Assembly: GCA_018829565.1 (NCBI GenBank)
Contig: JAHJTW010000061.1
Span: 119-64,118 of the forward strand
DNA from: a bacterium
GTDB taxonomy: Bacteria; Krumholzibacteriota; Krumholzibacteriia; LZORAL124-64-63
Direction: 5' to 3'
Length of the DNA: 64,000 nucleotides
This document shows positions 5,827 to 35,173 of this stretch, piece by piece (the stretch's first letter is position 1; each line of letters starts with the position of its first letter). A model generated the notes under the pieces. That model was not told where the DNA came from. It ran no database searches and saw only the letters and a list, made by a program, of their open reading frames with translations. The position numbers and the translations under genes are program-made.

Positions 5827-8112
5827 ATGAATTACAAGAAACTCTGGATCGTTTTCGCCCTGGTGGTCGTCGGCTCGTTCGCCGTCCTGGGCATCTTCGG
5901 CAGGGAGATCTACCGCCAGGCGCCCCCCATCCCCGACAGGGTGGTGACTCCCTCGGGCCAGGTCATCTTCACCGGACAGGACATCAGGGACGGCCAGAAC
6001 GTGTGGCAATCCACCGGCGGCCAGGAACTGGGCACCGTCTGGGGCCACGGAGCCTACATCGCCCCCGACTGGTCGGCGGACTGGCTCCATCGCGAGGGCG
6101 CTACCCTGCTCGAGGCCTGGGCCCGGCGCGATCACCTGATGGGGGCCGACGATCTTCCCCTCGAGACCAGGGCCGCCCTGGAGGCCCGGCTGCAGGCCGA
6201 GATCCGGAACAACGGTTACGATCCCGAGACCGGGGACTTGACCGTGTCGGACGACCGGGCCGCCGCCATCGCCCCCATCGCCGCGTATTACCGGGCGCTG
6301 TTCAGCGACGATCCAGCCCTGAGGGAGACCCGCGAGGCCTACGCCATGCGGGAGAACACCGTGGCCGGGGAGGAGAGGCTGCGCCAGCTGACGGCCTTCT
6401 TCTTCTGGGCCAGCTGGGCCTGCGTGACCGAACGCCCCGGTTCCGAGGTCACCTACACCAACAACTGGCCGCCCGACGACCTGGTCGGCAACCGGCCCAC
6501 CCCCAGCCTCATCCTGTGGACCGGTTTCTCGGTGATCATCCTGATCGCCGGCATCGCCATGCTGGCCTGGTACTACGCATCCCACCGGGACGAGGAACCC
6601 GACGCGGCCGACCTGCCCGCCGACGACCCCTTGATGGCCCTGTCCCCCACGCCCTCGATGAGCGCCACCCTCAAGTACTTCTGGGTGGTGACGGCCCTGA
6701 TCGTCGTGCAGGTGGCCATGGGGGCGATCACCGCGCACTACGGGGTCGAGGGAACCGGGTTCTACGGCCTGGACCTCTCCAGCATCCTGCCCTACAGCCT
6801 CAGCCGCACCTGGCACGTCCAGCTGGCCATCTTCTGGATCGCGACCTCCTGGCTGGCCACCGGGCTGTTCATCGCCCCTGCGGTGTCCGGCCATGAGCCG
6901 AGATTCCAGCGGCTGGGCGTCAACGTCCTGTTCGGCGCCCTGCTCGTCGTGGTGGCCGGATCGCTGACCGGGCAATGGTTCGGGATCATGCAGCGGCTGG
7001 GCCTGGTGGAGAACTTCTGGTTCGGCCACCAGGGCTACGAATACGTGGACCTGGGCCGGTTGTGGCAGATCCTGCTTCTGGTGGGCCTGTTCCTGTGGCT
7101 GCTGCTGATGGTCCGCGCCCTGATGCCGGCGCTGCGCCGGCCCGACAGCAGCCGACCTCTCCTGGTGCTGCTGGTCATCTCCTGCATCGCCATCGCCGGC
7201 TTCTACGGCGCCGGCCTGATGTGGGGCCGCCAGACGAATCTCGCCCTGGCCGAATACTGGCGCTGGTGGGTGGTCCACCTCTGGGTGGAAGGCTTCTTCG
7301 AGGTCTTCGCCACGGTGGTCATCGCGTTCCTGTTCGTCCGGCTGGGCCTGCTGAAGGTTGGGCTGGCGACCGCCGCGGCCCTGTTCTCCACCAACGTGTT
7401 CCTGGCCGGCGGCATCATCGGAACCTTCCACCACCTCTACTTCACCGGCACGCCCACGGCCGTCCTGGCCCTGGGAGCCACCTTCAGCGCCCTGGAGGTC
7501 GTGCCCCTGGTCCTGCTCGGCTTCGAGGCCTACCACAACCTCCGCCTCAGCCGCGCCAAGCCCTGGATCCAGGCCTACAAGTGGCCCATCTACTGCTTCG
7601 TCGCGGTCGCCTTCTGGAACCTGGTCGGGGCCGGGATCTTCGGGTTCCTGATCAACCCTCCCATCGCCCTCTACTACATGCAGGGCCTGAACACGACCCC
7701 CGTCCACGGGCACACCGCGCTGTTCGGCGTCTACGGGATGCTGGGGATCGGCCTGATGCTGTTCGTCCTCAAGGGCCTCGCCGCAAGGAACGTCTGGAAG
7801 GAGGGAGTGCTGCGGTTCGCCTTCTGGGCCATCAACATCGGACTGGCGCTGATGGTCCTGATCTCGGTGCTGCCCATCGGCCTCGCCCAGACCCTGGCCT
7901 CGGTCAGGGAAGGCCTGTGGTACGCCCGGTCCCAGGAGTTCATGCAGCAGGATTACATGCAGACATTGCGCTGGTTGCGGGTCATCGGGGACACCATCTT
8001 CGCGTTGGGGACCCTCGCCCTGGCCTGGTTCATCGCGGGGTTGAAGGGCGGCTGGTCGGTCTCCGGGGCGACCGACATGCCCCGCAGGGGTGGAGCCGCC
8101 GGGGTCGATTGA
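5827..8112 (+). CDS. norB: quinol-dependent nitric oxide reductase (qNOR, single-subunit NorB/NorZ type)
   Basis: 761 aa from the ATG at 5827 (GGAGG at 5817-5821). There is an N-terminal membrane anchor plus a periplasmic extension, then a 12-TM heme-copper oxidase-like core with conserved His clusters (WVVHLWVEGFFE, GTFHHLYF, HGHTALFGVYG). Confidence 0.9.
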   Translation: MNYKKLWIVFALVVVGSFAVLGIFGREIYRQAPPIPDRVVTPSGQVIFTGQDIRDGQNVWQSTGGQELGTVWGHGAYIAPDWSADWLHREGATLLEAWARRDHLMGADDLPLETRAALEARLQAEIRNNGYDPETGDLTVSDDRAAAIAPIAAYYRALFSDDPALRETREAYAMRENTVAGEERLRQLTAFFFWASWACVTERPGSEVTYTNNWPPDDLVGNRPTPSLILWTGFSVIILIAGIAMLAWYYASHRDEEPDAADLPADDPLMALSPTPSMSATLKYFWVVTALIVVQVAMGAITAHYGVEGTGFYGLDLSSILPYSLSRTWHVQLAIFWIATSWLATGLFIAPAVSGHEPRFQRLGVNVLFGALLVVVAGSLTGQWFGIMQRLGLVENFWFGHQGYEYVDLGRLWQILLLVGLFLWLLLMVRALMPALRRPDSSRPLLVLLVISCIAIAGFYGAGLMWGRQTNLALAEYWRWWVVHLWVEGFFEVFATVVIAFLFVRLGLLKVGLATAAALFSTNVFLAGGIIGTFHHLYFTGTPTAVLALGATFSALEVVPLVLLGFEAYHNLRLSRAKPWIQAYKWPIYCFVAVAFWNLVGAGIFGFLINPPIALYYMQGLNTTPVHGHTALFGVYGMLGIGLMLFVLKGLAARNVWKEGVLRFAFWAINIGLALMVLISVLPIGLAQTLASVREGLWYARSQEFMQQDYMQTLRWLRVIGDTIFALGTLALAWFIAGLKGGWSVSGATDMPRRGGAAGVD

Positions 8113-19313: not shown

Positions 19314-21274
19314 GCGGGAATCCGCAGCCTCGTGAACGCCTCGTTGAGGGCGGCCACGCGCCCCTGGTCCCTGCCTTCCATGTAGTAGCGCAGCACCGCG
19401 TCGGTGCCCGAGGCCCTCAGTTCGAACCACTGCCCCGAGAACTCGATGTAAGTGCCGTCACCGGCGTGGAAGATGCGCTTGATATCCGGCAGCGCCACGT
19501 CCTCCGTCATGGCCGCCCGGAGCCGGGCCGCCGCCTCCGCAGGTTCGAGACCTTCCAGGGCAAGGAAGAAGGCCACGGTGGCCTCCTTGCGCCGGTTCCC
19601 CTCGGCCCTGGCCTCGTCCCGGGCCTTCCCTTTCAGCGACTCGTCGAACAACGTGATGTCGCGCCGCTCGTAGAAGCGGTAGTCGGTGTCGTACTTATCC
19701 AGCAGGTCCAGGTAGTAGCGGGCGAAGCTGCCGCCTCCGGTGTGCAGCCGGGCGGCCAGGCAGAGGGCCATCACCCCGATCTGCATGGCGTCCTTCTCCT
19801 TGGGCGCCAGACTGGTCCGGGCGCCGCCGCGGCTACAGGTGGGCTCGGCCGGGCCCATGGCGGCCCCGCCGCTCTCCTCGGCCATGATCAGCAGGCGGGG
19901 CCGGGGACCGAAGACGGTCTCCCGGCCGGTCACGTCGGTGGCCCGGGTGTCCCGGCCTTCCGCGGCCGCGATCTGGTCCTCGATATCCTTCACCAGGGCG
20001 GCGAAGTGCTTGAAACCCACCGGCACCCTGAAGGTGCGCAGACCCGACCCCGTGGCCGCATTGGTCTTCTCGGCGATCTCCCCGATGCTCAGGCTGGTGG
20101 GATAGGTGGAGGCCACGATCCAGTCGTAGGCGTCCAGGATCCCGGCCTGCTGCAGCCCCTCGATCTTGAGTGCCGTCAGCATGAAGTAGATCTGGTTGGG
20201 CTTGAAGTAGACCAGGCAGCGGTCCGCGTCGAGAGGATCGACCTCCAGACCGGCGGCTGCGGCCTCGTCCGCCAGGACGGCGGGCGCCACCGTGACCATG
20301 TTGAAGCGGTCCCCATCCGGATCCCAGATGAAGAAGACGTGGCACTTGCGGCCCCGCAGCAAATCCTGGGCGCCGACGTGCTTGTACACCTGCCACTTGC
20401 CGGGATCCACGCCGTGGTTGACCCCGTCGACGATCCCGATGCCGTGGTAGGTGGTGCTTTCCCGGTCGTGGGTCAAAAACACGGGCCCGTCCTCGCCCAC
20501 CCCCACGTCCAGACCGCCGAAGATGCGGCGCGCGGCGGCGGCCATGGAGCCGCCCTCGGTGCAGAAGGCGGCCTTGAACCCCCCGGCGGCCGCCGGTCCG
20601 ATCTCCCCGAGCAGGGGCCCGGGGACGACCTGGCGCAGGTAGTCCAGGTAGGCGTCGTAGGGATCGAAATCCCGCCGGATGAGGGGATCGTTGGCCGCAG
20701 CGAGGCTGATCTTCAGCCCTGAGCGGGCGGCTCCGGCCACCAGTTCGCGCACCCGGTCGGCGATCAGGCCCGCCATCTCCAGAAGCTGGCCTCCGCTTGC
20801 ATCCATGGGCTTCCAGCCGCCCTTGTAGCTCTGGCTGTGGCTGGCTGTGAAGTTCTCGCCGCCGTCGAGCTCCTCGTAGAAGACCCCGAAGCTGGACAGC
20901 CAGATGGGCGTCGTGCGCCGGTCGGCCGGGCTCAGGTGCACCCGGATGCCCTTCGCCGCGTAGATCCTGGCGGCCAGGTCGATGAACTCCTGGGTGTGGG
21001 GCCGGACCTCCCCGCCCACGTGCAGGGACTTCAGGCCCCTTTCGACCGCCAGCTGGGCCCGGGCTTCCAGCATGATCCCCACGGTCAGCCCGTTGAAGGG
21101 GACCTCGAGATTGAACAGGTCGTCCGGATCCAGGAGGTCCCGGTATCCCGCCGTTCCCAGCTGGAACTGGGCCGCCCACCGATCCAGCCCGGCGTGGGCG
21201 ACCAGGTTCCGGTCCACGGAGAACGATTCGGCGGCCTTGGCGAACGGGGTGAACAGGGCGTGGCGCGGGCTCAT
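19307..21274 (-). CDS. alpha-D-phosphohexomutase superfamily protein (atypical PGM/PMM-like)
   Basis: Catalytic-Ser loop TASHSQSYKGGWKP, metal loop FIWDPDGDRFN, sugar loop MAEESGGAAMG. I prefer the ATG at 21274 (GGGAG 7 nt upstream, and downstream of the mapped promoter) over 21334. Confidence 0.75.
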   Translation of the reverse strand: MSPRHALFTPFAKAAESFSVDRNLVAHAGLDRWAAQFQLGTAGYRDLLDPDDLFNLEVPFNGLTVGIMLEARAQLAVERGLKSLHVGGEVRPHTQEFIDLAARIYAAKGIRVHLSPADRRTTPIWLSSFGVFYEELDGGENFTASHSQSYKGGWKPMDASGGQLLEMAGLIADRVRELVAGAARSGLKISLAAANDPLIRRDFDPYDAYLDYLRQVVPGPLLGEIGPAAAGGFKAAFCTEGGSMAAAARRIFGGLDVGVGEDGPVFLTHDRESTTYHGIGIVDGVNHGVDPGKWQVYKHVGAQDLLRGRKCHVFFIWDPDGDRFNMVTVAPAVLADEAAAAGLEVDPLDADRCLVYFKPNQIYFMLTALKIEGLQQAGILDAYDWIVASTYPTSLSIGEIAEKTNAATGSGLRTFRVPVGFKHFAALVKDIEDQIAAAEGRDTRATDVTGRETVFGPRPRLLIMAEESGGAAMGPAEPTCSRGGARTSLAPKEKDAMQIGVMALCLAARLHTGGGSFARYYLDLLDKYDTDYRFYERRDITLFDESLKGKARDEARAEGNRRKEATVAFFLALEGLEPAEAAARLRAAMTEDVALPDIKRIFHAGDGTYIEFSGQWFELRASGTDAVLRYYMEGRDQGRVAALNEAFTRLRIPAQ

Positions 21275-23582: not shown

Positions 23583-23639
23583 AACCCCAGGCCAAAAAAT
23601 GGCCAATTTTCTCATAAGACCCTATGTTTTTTGAAAATA

Positions 23640-23669
23640 GAAAATCCCCCGCCTGGCGGGGGATTTTCC
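23640..23669 (-). terminator. rho-independent terminator after the AtuA-like gene (palindromic, possibly bidirectional)
   Basis: GAAAATCCCCCGCC-t-GGCGGGGGATTTTC. On the minus strand the stem is followed by TATTTTC. Confidence 0.6.
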
Positions 23670-25612: not shown

Positions 25613-28600
25613 ATGAACCCTTCCAGCCCCCTGTCGGGACGCTACTTCGTCTTCGGGTTCCCCCTTTCGGGAGCCTCCTGGGACCGTTTCGGCGTCCTGA
25701 ACCTGCTCCCGGGGAGCGATCCGGAGACCCTGGCCGACCTGTCCTACGAGATCCGCAAGCTGGCCGATGCCGTCAACCGGGACCCGGGCTGCAAGGCCGG
25801 CGAGATCCCTCCCACCCAGGCCGAGATCCTGCTGGCCCTGCGCACGGTGAACCAGGCCCTGCGGTGGGTCTCGCGCCAGTACTTCACGCAGGACAATCCC
25901 GGCGGGCTGATGCGCTGCCGCCAGTGGGCCGAGCAGCGGCTGGGCACCGATGCGGTCGAGAACCTGTTCTCGACCTTCGTGGGGTTGTTTCCCCCTGCAG
26001 TGGTCAAGCGCGGCGTCAAGAAGCCCGCGGAGTTCCTGGCCACCGGCAGTGATGACCTGAGCGGGCCCGATCTCGCCTCCCTCGAGATGATCCTGCTGTT
26101 CATGAACGTGACCAACCCCGCGGCCCGGCCCGCCGAGCACCTCTTCGATGACGGCGAGCTCCGCCGCCGGGCGTCGTTCCTGCCGTTCGTCACCGGGATC
26201 GAGGATTACCTCGAGGAGTTCGAACCCCACGGCAGCTTGGGCACTTCCCTGTTCCACCTGCTGCGGGCGCCCATGCTGGCGAGTCCCGATTCGCTGTCGG
26301 GACAGATCGCGTACATCCGCGATCACTGGGCCCACCTGCTGCCCGAGGAGCTGGTGCGCAGTCTGCAATTCGCCCTGGACGTCCTGAAGGAGATCGATTC
26401 CCACCGGCTGGCCGCCTACGGTCCGCCCCCGGTGCTGGAGTTCGGTCCGGGCACGGCCGGCTGGATGGGCGAGTACCCCGAGCCCGAGGCCTTCAGCCAC
26501 GACGCCGACTGGATGGCCAACGTCGTGCTCATGGCCAAGTCGGTGTACGTCTGGCTGGACCAGCTGTCGCGGTGGTATGGACGGCCCATCCACACGCTCG
26601 CCGACATCCCTGACGAGGAACTGGACCGCCTGTCCCGCTGGGGCGTCAACGGCCTGTGGCTGATCGGCCTGTGGGAGCGCTCGACGGCCTCCCGCACCAT
26701 CAAGCAGTGGATGGGCAACCCCGAGGCCGCGGCCAGCGCCTACTCCCTGAAGGAATACGCGATCGCCCACGACCTGGGCGGCGAGGACGCCTGGCGCAAC
26801 CTGAGCGAGCGCGCCGGCCGCCGGGGCATCAAGCTGGCATCGGACATGGTGCCCAACCACATGGGCGTCGACAGCCGCTGGATGGTCGAGCACCCCGAGT
26901 ACTTCCTGCAGCTGGAGCATCCCCCCTACCCCGGCTACAAGTTCACCTGCGAGAACCTGTGCGACGCCCCGGGCGTGGGCGTGCGCATCGAAGACGGCTA
27001 CTGGAACCACAGCGACGCCGCGGTGGTGTTCCAGCGCATCGACGAAAGCACCGGCCATGCGCGCTACATCTACCACGGCAACGACGGCACCAGCATGCCC
27101 TGGAACGACACCGCCCAGCTGAACTTCCTGCTGCCTGAGGTGCGCGAGGCCGTCACGCGCGTGATCCTGGACGTGGCGCGGCGCTTCCCCATCATCCGCT
27201 TCGATGCGGCCATGACCCTCGCGAAGAAGCACTACCAGCGCCTGTGGTTCCCCTTGCCCGGCGACGCCGGCGCCATCCCCTCCCGCGCCGAGCACGGCAT
27301 GACCCGCGAGGAGTTCGACCGCGCCTTCCCCGTCGAATTCTGGCGCGAAGTCGTCGACCGCGTGGCCGCCGAGGCGCCCGACACCCTGCTGCTGGCCGAG
27401 GCGTTCTGGCTCATGGAAGGCTACTTCGTCCGCACCCTGGGCATGCACCGCGTCTACAACTCCGCGTTCATGAACATGCTCAAGATGGAGGACAACCAGA
27501 AGTACCGGCAGACGCTGAAGAACGTGCTGGAGTTCAGCCCCGGCATCCTGCAGCGCTTCGTGAACTTCATGAACAACCCGGACGAGCGCACCGCCGTCGA
27601 GCAGTTCGGCCGCGGCGATAAATATTTCGGCTGCATGGTTATGATGGTGACCCTGCCGGGCCTGCCCATGATCGGCCACGGGCAGATCGAGGGCTTCACC
27701 GAGAAGTACGGCATGGAGTACCGCAAGGCCTACTGGGACGAGAAGATCGACCAGGACATGGTCCGGCGGCACGAGCGGGAGATCTTTCCCCTCATGCGCC
27801 GCCGCCACCTGTTCAGCGGCGCGGAGAACTTCGCCCTGTTCGACTTCGAGCACGACCAGGGCTGGGTGGACGAGAACGTGTTCGCCTACGCCAACGGCCG
27901 CGGCCACGAGCGCGTGCTGATCATCTACAACAACGCCTACGAATCGACGAGCGGGCGCATCAAGCTGTCGTCGGCGATCAACCGCGGATCGGGAGACAAC
28001 CCGTCCCTGCACCAGGTGACCATCGCCGAGTCGTTGGCCCTCGATTGCTCGCCCGGGGTGTGGTACGCGCTGTTCGACCACGCCGACGGCCTGCAGTACC
28101 TGCGCACCGGTCGCGAGCTGGGCGAGCATGGCCTGCACACCACGCTGCACGGGTATCAGTACCGGGCGTTCCTGGGCATTCGCCGCCTCGATGGCGGCGA
28201 CGCCGAGTGGGCCGAGCTTGCGGGTGCGTTGCAGGGCGGCGGGGCGCCGGATCTGGTGAGGGCGCGGCTGCGGCGCACCGTCGAGCCGCAGCTGGCGAAG
28301 GTGCGGGAGTGGATGGCGCCCGAGGTGCTGGCGTGGTTGGAATGCGAGTCGGCGGCCACTGAGGAGACTATGCCGGCCGGGGGCGAAGCCGCCGGACGGC
28401 CTTCCGATACTGCCGAGGACTCCGTCCTCGGCGTGCTCCCTGCGTCATTGCGCGAGCTGGCGGAGGGGCTGCGCCAGGTCATGGAGCTGGAGATTCCCGA
28501 GAAGCTGGGCAAGGGCAGTCAGAAAGAGCTGGCCGCGCTGCGCGCGGCCATTCCGCACAGCAGGGCGCTGCAGGTCGTGTTCCTTGCGGGCGTGTTGGCG

Positions 28601-29029
28601 GAAGCCGCAAGGCCGGAACACGGATTGGCCGCCGAGGCGGCCGAACTCGTCGCCGAAGACATGGACGCCGCACTGCGCGAGTGGCTGGGCCACGATCACG
28701 CCGCGCGCATGGCCGGCTGGGCTGCGAGGCTGCTTGCAGCCTCTCCCGAGGCCGCCGCAGGCATGGCTACGGGCAAAACGGCATGGATGACGGCCGTGAC
28801 CGAGCGACCCGAGGCCGGCAGCTTCCTGGGCATCAACGAGCACGCCGGGGTGACCTGGTTCAGCGCCGAAGCCCTCGACGACTGGCTGTTGATCGTTGGC
28901 GTGGCTGCATTGGCGGGCGAGGAACCCGCCGATGTGGTGCCGCTGCTGGATGCGCGCTCGCTGCTGCGGCAGGCTGCGAAGAAGGCGGAATACAGGTTGC
29001 GAGAGTTCCGCGAGGCACTTGTGGGTTAA
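25613..29029 (+). CDS. large GH13 (alpha-amylase family) glycoside hydrolase with long N- and C-terminal extensions
   Basis: GH13 regions: IKLASDMVPNHMG (I), IIRFDAAMTL (II), LLLAEAFW (III), FMNNPDE (IV). 1138 aa with an Ala-rich C-terminal third. Confidence 0.8.
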   Translation: MNPSSPLSGRYFVFGFPLSGASWDRFGVLNLLPGSDPETLADLSYEIRKLADAVNRDPGCKAGEIPPTQAEILLALRTVNQALRWVSRQYFTQDNPGGLMRCRQWAEQRLGTDAVENLFSTFVGLFPPAVVKRGVKKPAEFLATGSDDLSGPDLASLEMILLFMNVTNPAARPAEHLFDDGELRRRASFLPFVTGIEDYLEEFEPHGSLGTSLFHLLRAPMLASPDSLSGQIAYIRDHWAHLLPEELVRSLQFALDVLKEIDSHRLAAYGPPPVLEFGPGTAGWMGEYPEPEAFSHDADWMANVVLMAKSVYVWLDQLSRWYGRPIHTLADIPDEELDRLSRWGVNGLWLIGLWERSTASRTIKQWMGNPEAAASAYSLKEYAIAHDLGGEDAWRNLSERAGRRGIKLASDMVPNHMGVDSRWMVEHPEYFLQLEHPPYPGYKFTCENLCDAPGVGVRIEDGYWNHSDAAVVFQRIDESTGHARYIYHGNDGTSMPWNDTAQLNFLLPEVREAVTRVILDVARRFPIIRFDAAMTLAKKHYQRLWFPLPGDAGAIPSRAEHGMTREEFDRAFPVEFWREVVDRVAAEAPDTLLLAEAFWLMEGYFVRTLGMHRVYNSAFMNMLKMEDNQKYRQTLKNVLEFSPGILQRFVNFMNNPDERTAVEQFGRGDKYFGCMVMMVTLPGLPMIGHGQIEGFTEKYGMEYRKAYWDEKIDQDMVRRHEREIFPLMRRRHLFSGAENFALFDFEHDQGWVDENVFAYANGRGHERVLIIYNNAYESTSGRIKLSSAINRGSGDNPSLHQVTIAESLALDCSPGVWYALFDHADGLQYLRTGRELGEHGLHTTLHGYQYRAFLGIRRLDGGDAEWAELAGALQGGGAPDLVRARLRRTVEPQLAKVREWMAPEVLAWLECESAATEETMPAGGEAAGRPSDTAEDSVLGVLPASLRELAEGLRQVMELEIPEKLGKGSQKELAALRAAIPHSRALQVVFLAGVLAEAARPEHGLAAEAAELVAEDMDAALREWLGHDHAARMAGWAARLLAASPEAAAGMATGKTAWMTAVTERPEAGSFLGINEHAGVTWFSAEALDDWLLIVGVAALAGEEPADVVPLLDARSLLRQAAKKAEYRLREFREALVG

Positions 29030-29052
29030 AGCCGAGACAAAAATCACGATCC

Positions 29053-29083
29053 TGTGACCAAAACCCCCGGCCGGACGGGGGTT
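29053..29083. repeat. 31-nt hairpin repeat, copy 1 (also the likely terminator of the GH13 gene)
   Basis: TGTGACCAAAACCCCCGGCCGGACGGGGGTT followed by CTATGATTTTTTGTT. It is 30/31 identical to 30467-30497. Confidence 0.8.
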
Positions 29084-29310
29084 CTATGATTTTTTGTTAA
29101 ATTCCATATCAATGCAACGAACCGCGATGACTCCACATTCCTTTCACACTACCCATTGATTTATTTTCATTAGGAACTGGTGGGCTGTTTAATACACTAT
29201 TTGCTGAACCATTCTGCTGTAGCCCACTGAAATGAGATCCTCCGTGTTGATTTTTTATCATGGTGGTTTTCCCATTTCAATCTGTTTCCGGTCCTCCCGT
29301 CGCAATCGGA

Positions 29311-30417
29311 TTACCGCGCAGGATCATTCTGCAGGGCCGCTCTCGCGGCCCGTTCATCCTCGTGCAGGCGGCGGTGGCAGCGGGCGCACAGGGTGATCAG
29401 GTTCGCCAGGTCGTCCGTCCCGCCCTGGGCGGCCGGGACCCGGTGGTGGATCTCGAGGAATCCCGTGTTGGAGCAGCCGGGATACTCGCACGCGTAGCAG
29501 GCACGTCGCAGGACCGCCCGGCGGACGCGGGGCGGGATGACGGATCGGCGACGGCCGTCCAGATCCTCCACGATGGCGTCGCAGGCGGCCGCCGCTAGAA
29601 GGGGCGGCGAGGCCGCAACCTCGCCGCGCGGGGTAGGCAATGCGGCTTCGCCGCATGAAGGGCAGTGAAGGATGATCAGGGAATAGCGCGGGCCCGTGGC
29701 CCCGCCTGATGGCGGGGCCGTTCCGCGCAAAGCATCAATAATGATATCTTCCCGCGCGTTGCCACCGGCTGTCTGTGCGGATTCAACCAGCCGACAGAAC
29801 TCGGCGTAATCCTCCCCCGCGAAAACCAGGGTGACGTGATGCTTCGCATCCAAAGGATGGGGTGGTTTTCGCTGGGGTGCCCTTGCCGTCGGGATGGCCG
29901 CCTTCCGGGGCGGCCCGGGCGGTGTGAGCACGGGAGGACTGCCAGGATGGGCCGCCTCAGCGGGGGCCGATTCAGGGGCAGCCGGTGCTTTCTCCGAAAG
30001 CGCCGGCATTCTGCGCAGTTGCCGGGCCGTCAAGTCCTGGGCGGCATCGATCCATGCGCTCTGATCCGCTGGATCCGCCCGCGTGGTGATCAACTGGGCC
30101 TGGGTCCACGACAGCCGCCCCTCCCCGAGAGCCGATTCCACTTCCGGGAAACTCGGTAACCGTCGAGCCAGGGCGAGGAAGTCCGCGACCTGGCGCTCGG
30201 TCAGGCCGGCCGCCGCCTTCCCGTATGCGGCCATGGTCGAAAATCCGAGCTTGCGGTAGACCCGGCACTCCTTGATCTGCAGCAGGTAGTATGCGGTCCG
30301 CACCAGGTCCTTCCGCAGAGCCTTGACCGAAACCACGAAATTGTTGTGAAGCGACGCTTCGCCCGGCGTCAGGCCTTGCCTGGCGGCCACATCGAGGGAA
30401 ATCCGTTCGTCCGTCAT
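29311..30417 (-). CDS. HNH endonuclease domain protein (DUF222-like N-terminus)
   Basis: C-terminal CYACEYPGCSNTGFLEIHHRVPAAQGGTDDLANLITLCARCHRRLH (HNH with a Cys4 zinc knuckle). The N-terminal helical domain resembles actinobacterial DUF222/13E12-type proteins. Confidence 0.8.
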   Translation of the reverse strand: MTDERISLDVAARQGLTPGEASLHNNFVVSVKALRKDLVRTAYYLLQIKECRVYRKLGFSTMAAYGKAAAGLTERQVADFLALARRLPSFPEVESALGEGRLSWTQAQLITTRADPADQSAWIDAAQDLTARQLRRMPALSEKAPAAPESAPAEAAHPGSPPVLTPPGPPRKAAIPTARAPQRKPPHPLDAKHHVTLVFAGEDYAEFCRLVESAQTAGGNAREDIIIDALRGTAPPSGGATGPRYSLIILHCPSCGEAALPTPRGEVAASPPLLAAAACDAIVEDLDGRRRSVIPPRVRRAVLRRACYACEYPGCSNTGFLEIHHRVPAAQGGTDDLANLITLCARCHRRLHEDERAARAALQNDPAR

Positions 30418-30466
30418 GATTCGGGGACATCCATCCGGGAGACGTCTACCAGATTTCTCACAGCTT

Positions 30467-30497
30467 TGTGACCAAAACCCCCGTCCGGACGGGGGTT
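30467..30497. repeat. 31-nt hairpin repeat, copy 2
   Basis: TGTGACCAAAACCCCCGTCCGGACGGGGGTT, part of a perfect 30-nt palindrome at 30472-30501. It is not downstream of any co-oriented gene. Confidence 0.8.
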
Positions 30498-30618
30498 TTG
30501 GGTCTCTCAGTCAATTATTCCAGCCAATTGCCAAATATCATTGGCCCTGCTCCTTCGGCTCGAACCCTGCAGCATACGCCGTGCCCTCCCTTGCCACGCT
30601 CACCCCGAAGGAGTTAAG

Positions 30619-30864
30619 ATGAGGAAGGACCACAGCGGGGAGAAGTCCATGGCCAACCGAGCGCGCGACTGGTTCGCCCAGGCGGGTTAGGACCTCATCG
30701 ACCGCGGCATGGCCCTGGACAACTTCTACGTCCCCAGCCGCTATCCCAACGGCCACCCCGAAGGCGCTCCCTTCGAGCATTTCGGTAAGCTCCAGAGCAG
30801 CGAGGCGTTGACCCATGCCGGTGCGATCCTTGACTTCGTCCGTGCTGAAATGGCCGGATCGTGA
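30619..30864 (+). pseudogene. decayed HEPN-domain toxin gene (in-frame TAG plus internal deletion)
   Basis: GAAGGAG RBS, then ATG at 30619. Translation MRKDHSGEKSMANRARDWFAQAG*DLIDRGMALDNFYVPSRYPNGHPEGAPFEHF...AGAILDFVRAEMAGS. It keeps the HEPN N-terminal helix and the C-terminal LDxxYIPxRYP block. It lacks the roughly 60 central residues that normally carry the Rx4-6H motif, and it has a TAG at 30688-30690. Confidence 0.65.
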
Positions 30865-31195
30865 CTCCGTCGTGAGGGCCCTCACGGTCTGGGCCCAGCG
30901 CCTGGGCGCTGCGCGCTCCGACCTCCTTCGTGTGGGCTACTTCGGCTCGTACGCCACGGGCCAATGGGGCGTGGGCAGCGATCTGGATCTGGTCCTGGTG
31001 GTCAGCCGCACCGACCGACCCTTCATCGAGCGCGCAAGCCGGTGGGACGCCACCGGGCTGCCCGTGCCTGCGGATGTCATCGTCTACACCCCGGACGAAT
31101 GGGATGCCGTGCTGGCCCGCGCCGACCGCTTCGCCCGCGTCATGGCCGACGAACTCAAGTGGGTGTGGTCGCGCGATGGCAATGGCGACGCTTGA
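30815..31195 (+). CDS. nucleotidyltransferase-domain protein (MNT-type antitoxin partner of HEPN)
   Basis: VGYFGSYATGQWGVGSDLDLVLVV is the GSxxxG..DxD polymerase-beta-type NTase motif. 126 aa. It overlaps the HEPN remnant by 50 nt. Confidence 0.8.
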   Translation: MPVRSLTSSVLKWPDRDSVVRALTVWAQRLGAARSDLLRVGYFGSYATGQWGVGSDLDLVLVVSRTDRPFIERASRWDATGLPVPADVIVYTPDEWDAVLARADRFARVMADELKWVWSRDGNGDA

Positions 31196-31207
31196 GAGCC
31201 GGCGCCC

Positions 31208-33601
31208 TCAATCCTCCTTCGGCGCCACCCAGACCTGCAGGAAGTTCAAGTCTCCCGCCACCGAGATCATGGAGTCGTACATCGAGGGCGCGAACGAAGG
31301 ATCGGGATACACGTACTCCGCTCCCTCCAGCCGCAGGTCCACCACCTCCCCGATGGTCATGAAGTCCAGGTAGTGTGTGCGGTCCACGATTTCGACGAGA
31401 TCGCGCAGCTGGTCGGGCCGGACCCCGCTGTTGGGCCAGCCGTCGTCCGGGACGTCATTGCTGTCGTGCCAGTAGAGGATGACCGGCGCCTGCCCGTAAT
31501 CCGTGTAGCTGGAGTCGACGATGTCCATCAGGGAATCCTCGAGGGCCATGCCGGTCACCTCGCCGCCCCATGATCCGAAGACCGCCGTCGAGTTGAGGGT
31601 TCCCAGGGCGAACATGTTGACGTGGGCGTACCAGCCGAGGGGCGTGTAAGGGCCCACGGCGTTGTTCCAGGTCGTGGGCCTGGTGCCCCGGGCCGACCGG
31701 TAGCCGTTGGCCACCAGGCGGCTGATGCCCTGGAGCGAAAGGGCCTCGTGGATGTTCCCGTCGGATGCGGCGGGCCAGGCGAAGTCCCGCAGGGTCAAGG
31801 TGTCCCGGGGATGGGTGAAGAGGGTGTCCACCCAGCCTCGCGCGATCTGGAAATCGATCTGCCTGTCGGTGTCGAGTTCGCCCAGGGCGCTGTGGTAGAT
31901 TGTGTGGAGGACGATGTCCATGCGGGGATCCTCGTTGATCGAATCCAGCTGGGCCTTCGTGATGGCAGGTGTGCCCCCGCGCCAGAAGTCACCCACGACG
32001 ACCTCCGAGTAGCCGTGCCCTGCCTCGGACATGATGTGGTAGAACCTGGCGTGGCTCGAGTCCCCATCGTCGACCGACATGACGATGGGCACCCGTACGC
32101 CGTCCCAGGGCTTCGAGCCGCGTTCCCTCACCGCCGTGATGGCAAGGCAGGGATTGCCCCGGGCGATCCGCGGGTAGGTGTTTCCGCAGGACCACGAGGT
32201 GATCATCGTCGGGGTGCCCGCGGTGTACACCGCGAAGAGCATCCCCCGGCCCTGATTGCCGTCGTCCACCACCTGCTGGACCGGGTCGGTGGCATCCAGT
32301 CTGATTCCCCAGTTCGACGCGTCCACGCTCCCGTCGCCCAGGATTCCTCCGGCCTCGTTGACCGCGCCACGGGGTCCGAAATCGTGCCAGTCGTCACGCG
32401 CCGCAAGGGGCGGGGTCCAGGAGACCATGGAACCGGCATCGACGTGGTTCCAGGTCGTGTTCAGCCAGGCCGGGTCGGAGTTCGGCGACCCCGAAGCCAC
32501 CATGGCGTAGTCGGCCGTCAGGGTATCCAGCCGGCAGGCCGCGTATCCGGTCGTGAGGTTGTTGATGCCGTACCGCATGACGTTCAGACAGATCCCGGCG
32601 TCGAGGATGCGGCAATCAGGCGGCAGGGCGGAAGTGTCGAACCAGATGAACATGTGGCTGGGCGGCGGTGTGCGGTTGTCCTCGGAAGCCCGACTCGTGT
32701 AGGTGCCATTGGGGTTGAAATTGATGGCATCAGGACTGGCGGCGCTCACGCCGCCATAGCGCAGGAAACGGCCAGGCGCGCCCTCGATGATGGTGTCGTA
32801 GGCTGCGTCCGCAAGGACCCAGCCCGAATCCGCCGCCGTCACGTTGGGGAAGGCGAGATCCCTGATGAGGATGCGGAAGGTGTCCGCTGGGGCCTGTGAC
32901 AGGGGGACCAGGCGGGCGAGGTGATTCACCGTCCCCTCGGGGATGGCCACCCGGTCCCAGAGGCAGGGTTCGTAGCCTTCCCTGGTGAACTCCACCCGTG
33001 CGCTGTCCACCATGGCCGGGATAGTCTTGGCCCCGGAGACATCCCCGGCGAGGGGAACGAAATCGATCCCTATGGCCCGGGGCCTTCCGGAGATTCTCCG
33101 AATGATTCTGCCCTCGCTCGGGCCCGGGATGATGGCCGCGAAGTATGTGCCGTAGGGCAGCCCCCTCGGCAAGTTCACCACCCCACCGGCAGCGGAACCG
33201 GAGGCCAGGCATCGCCCCCGCACGTCGTAGATCTCCACCCGGACCGGGTTCGACGACTTGATTCCGTCACCGGATAGCTCGAAATGAACCGTACCCGTTG
33301 AGGGATTGGGATACCCACGGGAAACGCTCAGGCCGGCAGGTACCAGGGGAACCGGGGATACGCTCCGCCATTCGATCTCCCCCGCTCCCATCCCGTCGGT
33401 CCAACCCCGGACGGTGTCGGGCGCCGCCGATTCAGGATTGAAGACGTAGGTATAACGGACGCCGGCAAGAGGAAGCCCGGTCGCTGAGTCTTCGGTGAGG
33501 ATCCGGATGGTGGTTCCTGGGGATGGGGAGGGCATCGCAAGGATCCCGAACACAACCAAAAACCAAAAACCAAAATAATAACGGTATTCCAATGTAGGCA
33601 T
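31208..33601 (-). CDS. surface protein: N-terminal signal anchor, internal FlgD/T9SS-like domain, C-terminal NodB-like polysaccharide deacetylase region
   Basis: YPNPSTGTVHFELS...VEIYDVRGRCLASG...GTYFAAI at residues ~95-160. NodB-like motifs VMSVDDGDSS, HTIYH, FAWPAASDG, VILYWHDS. Confidence 0.6.
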   Translation of the reverse strand: MPTLEYRYYFGFWFLVVFGILAMPSPSPGTTIRILTEDSATGLPLAGVRYTYVFNPESAAPDTVRGWTDGMGAGEIEWRSVSPVPLVPAGLSVSRGYPNPSTGTVHFELSGDGIKSSNPVRVEIYDVRGRCLASGSAAGGVVNLPRGLPYGTYFAAIIPGPSEGRIIRRISGRPRAIGIDFVPLAGDVSGAKTIPAMVDSARVEFTREGYEPCLWDRVAIPEGTVNHLARLVPLSQAPADTFRILIRDLAFPNVTAADSGWVLADAAYDTIIEGAPGRFLRYGGVSAASPDAINFNPNGTYTSRASEDNRTPPPSHMFIWFDTSALPPDCRILDAGICLNVMRYGINNLTTGYAACRLDTLTADYAMVASGSPNSDPAWLNTTWNHVDAGSMVSWTPPLAARDDWHDFGPRGAVNEAGGILGDGSVDASNWGIRLDATDPVQQVVDDGNQGRGMLFAVYTAGTPTMITSWSCGNTYPRIARGNPCLAITAVRERGSKPWDGVRVPIVMSVDDGDSSHARFYHIMSEAGHGYSEVVVGDFWRGGTPAITKAQLDSINEDPRMDIVLHTIYHSALGELDTDRQIDFQIARGWVDTLFTHPRDTLTLRDFAWPAASDGNIHEALSLQGISRLVANGYRSARGTRPTTWNNAVGPYTPLGWYAHVNMFALGTLNSTAVFGSWGGEVTGMALEDSLMDIVDSSYTDYGQAPVILYWHDSNDVPDDGWPNSGVRPDQLRDLVEIVDRTHYLDFMTIGEVVDLRLEGAEYVYPDPSFAPSMYDSMISVAGDLNFLQVWVAPKED

Positions 33602-33921
33602 ATATCACCACCGATAGAATGAAAATATTGGCAGACAACAAATAATGGGAATTCACCAAATGTTTCGGCCTGCCTGTATCGATATCCCTGGGGCAAGATA
33701 TGGGGCCCCGCATCAGGAATGAGTCTAACATGACTCAAGGGGTGGAGCCAAGCTGAAAACGAATCATTTCATCCAACAACGACCGACCGGCCAATCCTGA
33801 GATAACCGCATGCCCGGCATCATCAATCCTTCAACCTCGCGGAATCACTGCCGATATCCTGGGAGATGGCGATCCCACCCGGGGCGCCCGCCCCAGCCCG
33901 CATGCCGCAGGGGGATACCGC

Positions 33922-35127
33922 GTGGAAAAGCAGATCCTGGTCCTGGTCGTCGAGGACAGCATCACCGTCCAGCGCATGGTCCGCCAGATGCTCCAGGACG
34001 ACCCGGGCCACCGGTTCGACGTCCTCGCCTGCGACAATCTGGGGGACGCGGCGACCATCCTGGTCGAGCAGCCCATCGACGTCATCATCCTGGACCTCAC
34101 CCTGCCTGAATGCACCGGTGTGGAGACCGTCAACCGGGTCCGGGCCATGGATCCCGACGTGCCCATCGTGGTGTTCACCGGGTGCGAGGACGACAACCTG
34201 GCCATGGCGGCCATGCACATGGGCGCCGACGACTTCCTGGTCAAGCGGGAGGTCCGGCAGGGATCGCTGCTCAGCCGCACCCTGCGCTACACCATCGAGA
34301 AGAAGCGGGCCCGCCTCGCCCTGGACCGTTACGCCCTGGAGATGGAGCGGCTGGCCGAGGCCCGCGCGCGCCAGCTGTTGCACCAGGACCGGCTGGCGAC
34401 CATCGGCACCATGTCGGCCGGGGTGGCCCACGAGATCAAGAATCCCCTGGCCTTCATGTCCGGCAACGCCCAGGCCTTGAAGGATCTCTGGCCGGAAGTC
34501 GAGGGCTGTCTGAGGAACTGTCTGGAAAAGGAGATCGGGGACGGGGAGGAGATCACCTACATCCTCGATGAGGTCCCCTCCATGCTCGCCGACATCCAGT
34601 CGGGAACCGAGCGCATCCTGGAGATCACCGAGGGGCTGAAGAACTTCGCCCGCAAGAACACCAGCGAGACCTCGGCGGCGACCGTCGAGAGCTGCATCGA
34701 CGGGGCGCTGCTCCTCTGCCGCAACCTGCTGAAGTACGGGATCGAGGTGGAGAAGGATTTCGCAGCGGGCGAACCGCCCCTGCCGCTCCAACCCCAGCGC
34801 ATGACCCAGGTGTTCGTGAACCTGTTCACCAACGCCGCCCAGGCCATGGACGGCAAGGGTACGCTGGCCATCAGCACCGCCATCGAAGGCGAGGACCTGA
34901 TCGTGCGCGTCCGCGACTCCGGCCCGGGCATCCCCGACGAGACCCTCGAGTCCATCTGGGAGCCCTTCTTCACCACCAAGCCCGAAGGGGTGGGCACCGG
35001 CCTGGGCCTGTCCATCTGCCGCAAGATCATCGAGGAGCACCGGGGCACTCTCACGGTCGCCAGCGGCGGTCAGGGTGCCGAATTCACCCTGGTCATTCCG
35101 CTTCAACCCATGCCTGCGGTGGTCTAA
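33922..35127 (+). CDS. soluble hybrid REC-HisKA-HATPase sensor kinase
   Basis: GTG start. ILVLVVEDS...VIILDLTLPE (receiver), SAGVAHEIKNPLAF (H-box), RVRDSGPGIP, GTGLGLSICRKIIEEHRG (G-boxes). Confidence 0.85.
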   Translation: MEKQILVLVVEDSITVQRMVRQMLQDDPGHRFDVLACDNLGDAATILVEQPIDVIILDLTLPECTGVETVNRVRAMDPDVPIVVFTGCEDDNLAMAAMHMGADDFLVKREVRQGSLLSRTLRYTIEKKRARLALDRYALEMERLAEARARQLLHQDRLATIGTMSAGVAHEIKNPLAFMSGNAQALKDLWPEVEGCLRNCLEKEIGDGEEITYILDEVPSMLADIQSGTERILEITEGLKNFARKNTSETSAATVESCIDGALLLCRNLLKYGIEVEKDFAAGEPPLPLQPQRMTQVFVNLFTNAAQAMDGKGTLAISTAIEGEDLIVRVRDSGPGIPDETLESIWEPFFTTKPEGVGTGLGLSICRKIIEEHRGTLTVASGGQGAEFTLVIPLQPMPAVV

Positions 35128-35147
35128 GACCATCGGACCGGAATATA

Positions 35148-35173
35148 CGAACCCCCGCCGCAGCGGGGGTTCG
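35148..35173. terminator. GC hairpin between the convergent kinase and ptrB genes
   Basis: CGAACCCCCGC-cgca-GCGGGGGTTCG. Confidence 0.45.

Follow-up and report, generated by a model that had tools for sequence, protein, structure and literature searches.

The window analyzed here is a stretch of 64,000 nucleotides (nt) from contig C24 of a 4.39-Mb metagenome-assembled genome (MAG) of Candidatus Krumholzibacteriia (67% GC; hereafter G000). At the locus under study, a gene for an HNH endonuclease lies between a convergently transcribed GH13 alpha-amylase-family gene and a divergently oriented HEPN pseudogene, which is followed by an intact MNT nucleotidyltransferase gene. The HNH gene is bracketed by two direct copies of a short palindromic element that we call E. 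From the comparison of this locus with related genomes, we consider it probable that E-HNH-E is a small selfish HNH cassette with cognate repeats and not a one-off duplication of a terminator.

The bracketing copies were originally predicted to be direct repeats of 31 nt, the first at the position of the GH13 terminator and the second not 3' of any co-oriented gene, with only the HNH open reading frame (ORF) and an AT-rich tail between them. This layout was confirmed. On the + strand of the window, the pattern TGTGACCAAAACCCCCGKCCGGACGGGGGTT has exactly two exact matches, one spanning 29053-29083 and the other 30467-30497, and it has none in 100 dinucleotide-preserving shuffles; the two copies, TGTGACCAAAACCCCCG(G/T)CCGGACGGGGGTT, are identical at 30/31 positions, with one loop base as the sole difference. 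Copy 1 begins 24 nt past the GH13 stop codon (29029) and scored as terminator-like, copy 2 separates the HNH start from that of the divergently read HEPN pseudogene, and the intervening tail (29084-29310) has a GC content of 42-46%. The same comparison corrected the picture in other respects. The repeated 31 nt belong to a longer element; a TCAC-N6-GTGA hairpin and a box are present in both of its copies, and the TGTGACC bases beyond the stem, which the prediction had stressed, are the 3' half of that small hairpin plus the consensus spacer of the E family. The hairpin core AACCCCCGNCCGGACGGGGGTT is not unique to the locus: it is scattered over contigs C189, C203 (twice), C258 and C308 of G000, and this scattered hairpin is nevertheless associated with HNH genes. 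As all genomes compared are MAGs, certain loci (C189, C308 and C100) may represent a single repeat-bounded region in variant form.

Element E is ~86 nt long. Its small hairpin (P2, TCAC-N6-GTGA) is separated by two spacer bases from a GC-rich palindrome (P1), which has an A-run on one side and a T-run on the other, and a conserved part of ~40 nt (the box), with the consensus CGCGTCTCTCAGACAAAATATCCGCCAATGATTCAATCC, completes the element. We defined it from an alignment of 10 sequences from G000 and its sister species G002. Searches with nhmmer and with a covariance model built for E (R1) recovered 11-12 full copies in G000 and 11 in G002; R1 found only weak matches in the other five genomes of the genus. 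The P1 helix is supported by compensatory change (89.9% of cells paired compared with 79% in shuffles; 15 cells with double changes), a level that 0/500 shuffles equaled, and RNAalifold recovers the same helix. E occurs singly or in pairs and never in arrays. Since P1 has the form of a bidirectional terminator and E usually follows gene ends, a harmless terminator role for the solo copies is likely. A reading of E as a miniature inverted-repeat transposable element found little backing, as there are no convincing terminal inverted repeats or target duplications; by reading, a 6-nt inverted match (AATCAT) is present at the ends of some copies only, and in the comparison of C111 with locus L029 the region was unalignable. 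The features of the window locus are collected in Table 1.

Table 1. Features at the HNH locus, in window coordinates.
Feature	Position	Strand	Basis or remark
GH13 alpha-amylase-family gene, 1138 aa	25613..29029	+	Pfam Alpha-amylase 3.7e-10
E copy 1 (W1)	29039..29124	+	R1 71.6 bits, E-value 4e-17; terminator-like scan match; alignments
W1, P2 TCACgatcctGTGA	29044-29057		
W1, P1 type A	29061-29084		
W1, degenerate AT-rich box	29085-29124		
AT-rich spacer, unique	29125..29310		GC 0.42-0.46; no blastn/tblastx match
HNH endonuclease gene, 368 aa	29311..30417	-	Pfam HNH 2.1e-11
Conserved GC hairpin GGGCCGCtctcGCGGCCC	29334..29351		within last 40 nt of HNH ORF
E copy 2 (W2)	30453..30538	+	R1 90.1 bits, E-value 2.6e-22; fold z-score -3.5
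W2, P2 TCACagctttGTGA	30458-30471		
W2, P1 type A, perfect 24-nt palindrome	30475-30498		
W2, box	30499-30538		
Promoter-like site in W2 box, ATGATA-16-(TG)gAATAAT	30514..30541	-	towards P1 and HNH; consensus scan, 9/12 with TG
HEPN pseudogene and intact MNT nucleotidyltransferase gene (30815-31195)	30620..31195	+	sequence reading; Pfam NTP_transf_2

The two copies differ in their setting. W1 has the form of an intrinsic terminator in the terminator scan (8 pairs, 6 of them GC, with the tail CTATGATTTT) and is predicted to end transcription of both GH13 and HNH, which converge on it. W2 has TTTT on both strands and does not follow a gene; read on the minus strand, it presents the box, P1, P2 and then 35 nt to the HNH start. 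The promoter-like site in the W2 box is a consensus match only and, by reading, is poorly kept in other E copies. A Bacteroidetes-type or sigma-70 promoter in the box is a possibility only, the single 9/12 match in copy 2 not being conserved across copies.

The arrangement found in the window recurs among relatives of the HNH gene. E stands directly upstream of HNH in 5/5 of the closest copies (the window, the syntenic copy on contig C2 of G002, a copy on C21 of G002 and two copies in GCA_043826375.1), always in the order box, P1, P2, 35-45 nt and ATG. GCA_043826375.1 is a MAG conspecific with G000 (98-100% identical in flanking DNA), and its loci L035 and L017 are the counterparts of the window locus. 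There, an 83-nt repeat with a single palindrome type is formed by the two E copies that follow GH13 (L035) and precede HNH (L017), and between them lie the HNH gene and a gene for a beta-helix protein. This palindrome is of type C (G-C-Y-TGACGTCAGGCAG), distinct from type A (AAACCCCCGTCCGGACGGGGGTTT) of the window, from type B (ATAGCCTCATATGAGGCAG) and from a further variant, B', in G002. HNH orthologs at 47-55% identity are also bracketed by direct repeats: GTGCGGAACGTTCCGC in G003, where these are the only two copies in the genome; a 50-nt repeat ending in AACACCCGCATATGTGTATGT in G004, with two flanking and two solo copies; TGGCGCACRTGCGCCA in G006, with two flanking and about five other copies; and repeats of 40 nt in GCA_054043445.1, 37-38 nt in G018 and 42 nt in G054. 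Overall, the bracketing repeats range from 23 to 83 nt and each genome has its own palindrome.

To express this bracketing as a score, we aligned the 450-nt upstream flank of each gene locally with its 450-nt downstream flank and kept the top alignment, with 600 random genes of G000 (250-500 aa) as the control. The HNH genes scored 57 in G000, 63 in G004, 72 in GCA_043826375.1, 55 in GCA_054043445.1, 49 in G018, 54 in G054, 36 in G003 and 33 in G006. A score of at least 45 was reached by 6 of ~28 HNH genes, compared with 0/600 random genes. Recurrent bracketing by genome-specific palindromic direct repeats is a property of this HNH family and not a product of chance. These data support the view that the window holds a free-standing HNH unit, devoid of integrase or transposase, between direct hairpin repeats, and other HNH copies flanked by duplicated hairpins, which the original prediction had singled out as a check, were found in six other genomes.

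The palindromes within E also evolve in concert. Identical type A P1 sequences occur at 5-7 dispersed, non-orthologous loci of G000 (seven sites counted), and type B occurs there at 0 sites; in G002 the counts are six for type B and three for type A, every one of these sites within E. Seven E copies are orthologous between G000 and G002, in flanking DNA that is 84-94% identical. In five of these seven pairs the inner P1 is identical at only 5-12 of 18 positions, and the rest of the element at ~49-84% (71-84% in three of the five). Because the inner P1 differs while the flanks of the element stay conserved, we conclude that P1 has been replaced as a unit inside a conserved frame between species. 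Other genomes have their own dispersed palindromes (4 sites in G004 and 7 in G006), and two solo copies in G004 share the 21-nt palindrome of the HNH-flanking copies, yet their boxes clearly differ. The HNH lineages present are type-A-linked only in G000 and both type-A-linked and type-B-linked in G002.

Bracketing and concerted evolution bear on a reading in which the HNH gene has no functional link to E. Under this reading, E would be an ordinary 3' untranslated region (UTR) or terminator module that spread with duplicated gene ends, the HNH gene would merely lie between two such modules, and ordinary RecA-dependent conversion would homogenize nearby copies. We regard this as unlikely, although several features speak for it. 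Most E copies are at gene 3' ends, the solo copies mostly just 3' of genes in the usual orientation box, P1, P2, and P1 has the form of a bidirectional intrinsic terminator. Many copies follow genes with a FlgD_ig C-terminal domain (CTD), whose 170-nt ends are themselves repeated, and a 210-nt duplication on contig C203 joins a gene end to E. However, such a module does not predict that HNH genes should be bracketed so much more often than random genes, or that the G003 palindrome should occur only at the two HNH flanks. In addition, P1 is exchanged as a 20-nt unit within diverged flanks, a pattern that ordinary conversion does not usually produce, and the P1 types of a genome track its HNH lineages.

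The gene ends mentioned above were also recorded in their own right. The FlgD_ig-type CTD stretch of ~170 nt is repeated at 75-89% nucleotide identity at no fewer than eight loci of G000 (C77:17525-17695, C75, C139, C182, C314, C343, C122 and C111), and E is often found 30-170 nt past these genes. On C203 (L022), positions 47-259 and 1601-1806 form the direct duplication of ~210 nt, which comprises the last ~110 nt of a coding region and a complete E and brackets a 372-aa FlgD_ig-domain ORF on the opposite strand. Within the window, a weak E-like terminator, GGAAAATCCCCCGCCAGGCGGGGGATTTTC, is located at 23626-23669 after the AtuA gene.

Presence and absence of cassettes and of solo E copies can be followed at several sites. 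In G003, repeat-HNH-repeat forms a 1.46-kb insertion between the convergent ackA and PhzF-like genes. The corresponding sites are empty in G001, where the two stop codons are 6 nt apart, and in G005, where they are ~120 nt apart, and neither empty site contains the hairpin. As the empty sites are devoid of it, the G003 repeats appear to have arrived with or after the insertion and would not be copies of a resident terminator. The HNH family occupies at least five different loci within this one genus, and the G000 locus orthologous to the G004 cassette has a 425-aa kinase/regulator gene instead. A solo element is also polymorphic: just 3' of ackA in G000 (C103, L046) there is a ~105-nt box-plus-P1 element with the P1 AATCCCCACACGTGTGGGAT, which is absent from G002 in otherwise collinear flanks. 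This ~105-nt indel is clean, its junctions (between ctcct and cggcggacgccc) being ambiguous by 1-2 nt.

At the GH13 locus itself, the next gene after GH13 is rho in G001 and G004, while unrelated neighbors are present in G003, G005 and G006, and neither E nor HNH was found downstream of GH13 in these five other genomes of the genus. As GH13 in these genomes has no E downstream, copy 1 would not be the ancestral GH13 terminator. The GH13 end is followed by an E with the type C palindrome in the conspecific MAG and by an E with B' in G002.

These sites allow an evaluation of the explanation first offered for the window, in which a repeat-free HNH unit entered a resident terminator hairpin (that of GH13 here and, by extension, that of ackA in G003) and left a second copy of it, a long target-site or att-like duplication. 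Some features are what this explanation would lead one to expect. The upstream repeat in G003 and G004 follows a co-oriented gene by 70-80 nt, just where its terminator should be, the downstream one in both genomes lies between convergent genes, and target-derived repeats would give a different hairpin in each genome, as observed. Furthermore, G000 has a solo E after ackA, the gene that adjoins E-HNH-E in G003, and a resident E could have been the target. Nevertheless, we consider this explanation rather improbable, and the original prediction of a duplicated GH13 terminator is not supported, in view of the empty sites in G001 and G005, which lack the hairpin, and the absence of E after GH13 in the five other genomes of the genus. 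The repeats vary between 23 and 83 nt where a fixed length would be expected, the hairpin occurs at five or more other loci, and the same palindrome is found at dispersed solo sites with differing boxes. The three palindromes A, B' and C at the same GH13 locus in three genomes would require later conversion if there had been one ancestral duplication.

The selfish-cassette reading, which we favor, is further informed by local divergence around the GH13 locus. Between HNH and the GH13-side E there is a beta-helix gene in GCA_043826375.1, a 204-aa ORF plus a FlgD_ig-CTD fragment in G002, and only the unique 186-nt AT-rich stretch in G000. This stretch has no homolog in the genome or at the compared loci by blastn or tblastx and is probably a deletion scar left by loss of the beta-helix gene; a minus-strand ORF that overlaps it (29109-29261, 50 codons) is doubtful. 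In comparison with the conspecific MAG (L035), GH13 is 98-100% identical up to ~28200 and then 79-95% identical over its last ~800 nt (28213-28992). The HNH gene is 83% identical, E and the 5' UTR are unalignable, and identity returns to 96-98% beyond ~30690. The cassette locus of G000 is thus a divergence hotspot between conspecific genomes, and the divergence at the 3' end of GH13 suggests a recombination or co-conversion tract that extends into the gene.

The HNH domain of the protein matches Pfam PF01844 (44.2 bits against a cut-off of 21.4), and DUF222 (PF02720) scored 23.6 bits, just under its cut-off of 24.4, over only profile positions 21-121 of 306. The protein is predicted to begin with a ParB/Noc-like helix-turn-helix (HTH) domain (approximately residues 15-135), which a Pro-rich linker and a CPxCG zinc ribbon connect to the HNH domain (CxxC...HH...N...CxxCH) at the C-terminus, in which C310, C315, H324, H325, N339, C344, C347, H348 and H352 are invariant in 14 homologs. 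In an AlphaFold2 model computed from the homolog alignment, residues ~20-135 have a predicted local distance difference test (pLDDT) score of ~90, the HNH domain is moderate and the mean pLDDT is 65. Foldseek matched the N-terminal domain to those with which Noc, ParB and Spo0J bind DNA (TMt 0.61-0.69 and probability 1.0, but E-value only 0.02-0.05), the best match being 6y93_B (TMt 0.69, root-mean-square deviation 3.0, E-value 0.018), with 6s6h, 6t1f and 4umk similar. At the level of sequence profiles, the best non-HNH match was the ParB 6s6h_A at a weak E-value of 0.15, and the HNH protein gave no match to Pfam ParB. Together, these predictions weakly suggest that the N-terminal domain folds like the palindrome-binding HTH domain of ParB and Noc. 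ParB-family domains bind palindromes of 13-16 bp as dimers. The putative recognition-helix segment (residues ~74-82) differs among HNH lineages with different palindromes: it reads TERQVADFL with type A palindromes, TGKQVTEFL with type C and TGKQVTAFL with type B, which is suggestive only.

We rejected an assignment to IscB/HEARO: the NF040563 match covered no more than the HNH part and, at 48 bits, fell short of the cut-off of 175, and an Rfam scan of 28800-30800 at permissive E-values gave chance-level matches only, with no family at threshold. PADLOC returned generic HNH-domain matches only. No integrase was found between or next to the repeats in the annotated stretch (23.7-35.1 kb), in which attC core sites were not searched for. 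Across the taxonomic family, 27/41 genomes contain the HNH family, which is multi-copy and reaches 9 copies in a single genome, and several G000 paralogs are at contig ends, as expected of repeats that break assemblies. Two distant G000 paralogs (C248:~6290-6500 and C49:~19600-19816) have a strong promoter in common, TTGCAT-17-TATAAT, and a 5'-UTR hairpin, CTCCTCCCggattcccaGGAGGAG. The hairpin within the window HNH ORF (29334-29351) is identical at 16/18 bases in the three closest copies, and the other two have one substitution each, in opposite arms. At L034 (G001:C16), the palindrome GCCGCACGTGCGGC occurs at 4136-4149 and 4209-4222, 73 nt apart, in the last HNH codons and in the downstream E; this palindrome within the ORF equals the downstream P1 and has the same relative place as the window hairpin.

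A more specific proposal, which we put forward tentatively and regard as possible but doubtful, is that this HNH nuclease, fused to a ParB/Noc-type domain, cuts its own cognate 16-24-bp palindrome and thereby drives both gene capture and the conversion of P1 in other repeat copies to its own type, which would make the cassette a previously undescribed selfish element. In such a scheme, the protein would bind the cognate palindrome through its ParB/Noc-like HTH domain and cut at or near it, and repair of the break from another E copy would homogenize P1. If the template were E-HNH-E, or a circle excised by E-E recombination, the gene would be copied or integrated into a solo E and the bracket regenerated. 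Conversely, recombination between the flanking E copies would delete the gene and leave a solo E. Nuclease lineage and palindrome would co-evolve, and in the window the gene between HNH and the left E (the beta-helix gene of the conspecific MAG) has probably been lost, leaving the AT-rich tail. This mobility mechanism is an inference.

Several observations weigh against the cassette reading and its proposed mechanism. The ParB-like assignment depends on E-values of 0.02-0.15 and on a model with a mean pLDDT of 65. The repeats in G003 and G006 are short, and their scores of 36 and 33 are reached by 4 and 10 of the 600 random genes, respectively. Bracketing is absent from G002 C21 (where no second E follows the beta-helix gene), from the second G004 copy and from 16/18 distant homologs. 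At the orthologous locus in G002 (C2), where an HNH gene lacking repeats would have counted against the original prediction, HNH and two E copies are both present, but the two copies have different palindromes. We found no clean empty site or HNH-less allele for the GH13 locus. Two occupied loci are shared between species in the clade of G000, G002 and GCA_043826375.1, and because of this sharing the copies at these loci are old and not recently mobile. Lastly, since many E copies follow the ends of secreted-protein genes with a FlgD_ig CTD, part of E could have spread by duplication or conversion of these gene ends with HNH uninvolved.

The second cassette of this clade stands beside a gene for an SSF transporter in G002 and GCA_043826375.1. 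No empty site for it was found in the comparison with G000, where the breakpoint on C274 lies within the SSF 3' end. At this position G000 has 1.8 kb of unrelated sequence (C274:3341-5149) where the other two genomes have the 4.8-kb E-HNH-beta-helix cassette, and the breakpoint is inside the last 63 nt of the SSF gene.

A last alternative, that the palindromes are operator-like or centromere-like sites bound by the ParB-like domain (as with KorB and Noc) beside its own gene and at about ten other loci for autoregulation or chromosome organization and have no part in mobility, draws on the modeled ParB/Noc-like fold of the N-terminal domain and on the presence in several P1 cores of CACGTG, as in the parS consensus, but we consider it very improbable given the conserved, intact HNH nuclease domain, the multi-copy state (a genome may have as many as 9 copies, many of them at contig ends, and their loci differ from species to species) and the insertion/empty-site polymorphism.

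On the far side of the cassette, the HEPN gene at window positions 30620-30865 is a pseudogene with a stop after 23 codons and its central part deleted. HEPN is intact (129 aa) in the conspecific MAG (L017 4356-4745), alongside an MNT of 107 aa, whereas its G002 counterpart is truncated further than that of G000. Both G000 and the conspecific MAG have an intact MNT, and the G002 locus contains MNT-homologous DNA. Further downstream, ~4 kb of the window (31185-35149), with a gene of 797 aa that has a Por_Secre_tail/FlgD-like domain and a gene of 436 aa, are absent from the conspecific MAG. There, MNT is immediately adjacent to an S9 peptidase gene, in flanks of 96-98% identity.

The cassette shares features with several known systems. 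As in REPIN/REP-RAYT systems (REPtrons), a nuclease-type gene is flanked by a short palindromic repeat that is also dispersed intergenically, is specific to a genome or lineage and evolves in concert. Unlike those systems, the protein here is an HNH nuclease with a ParB-like HTH in place of a Y1 HUH transposase, no gene other than HNH lies between the repeats, the flanking repeats are direct and not inverted, copy number is 2-12 and not hundreds, and a conserved box and a further hairpin are added to the repeat. In several phyla, few multi-copy "repeat" genes are as common as the DUF222-type HNH genes, REP13E12 included. The REP13E12 units of M. tuberculosis resemble the present ones in being multi-copy, ~1.4 kb long, equipped with a DUF222-type HNH protein and devoid of a known transposase, but here the DUF222 match is below threshold (23.6 against 24.4 bits) and the phylum is Krumholzibacteriota. 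Diversity and gene conversion are concentrated at these DUF222/HNH repeats of M. tuberculosis, for which no function is known (PMC13061034; PMC10589994).

Free-standing homing endonuclease genes (phage seg/mob HNH, GIY-YIG) are likewise stand-alone intergenic nucleases with presence/absence polymorphism, and the raised flank divergence at the window locus is consistent with co-conversion of the kind they undergo. Those genes have no bracketing repeats and home to one allelic site, whereas here the presumed target is a dispersed repeat, two copies of which flank the gene. Direct repeats that flank a coding unit while single repeats occur elsewhere, as at the ackA locus with its solo E in one genome and E-HNH-E in another, are also reminiscent of solo long terminal repeats and of Campbell-type integration; in contrast to these, the present cassette has no reverse transcriptase or integrase, its repeats are only 25-86 nt and its mechanism is a proposal.

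ParB-family proteins typically have cognate palindromes of 13-16 bp beside their own genes and dispersed on the replicon. ParB-parS, Noc-NBS and KorB-OB are therefore similar in the predicted N-terminal fold and in cognate palindromes placed beside the gene and dispersed. They differ in that the present protein is an HNH fusion with no ParB N-terminal CTPase domain and no ParA partner, and in that its palindromes are 16-24 bp long, with A/T runs, and terminator-like. With intrinsic bidirectional terminators, E shares a GC stem between A- and T-runs at gene ends, and with pneumococcal BOX and Neisseria Correia elements it shares modularity, conserved flanks and promoter-like sequence. Unlike all of these, the E hairpin is a perfect palindrome through its center and is exchanged as a unit, and no terminal inverted repeats or target duplications were seen.

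Together, these comparisons make the genus a tractable system in which a cassette of ~1.3-1.5 kb with terminal direct repeats, solo repeats, exchanged palindromes and a predicted palindrome-binding nuclease can be studied side by side. If the nuclease does target its own repeat, such targeting would account for the mobility of the gene as well as for a genome-wide rewriting of terminator hairpins, and it would provide a nuclease family with readable, co-varying palindrome specificities. If it does not, E would still represent a new family of intergenic repeats with a concertedly evolving hairpin.

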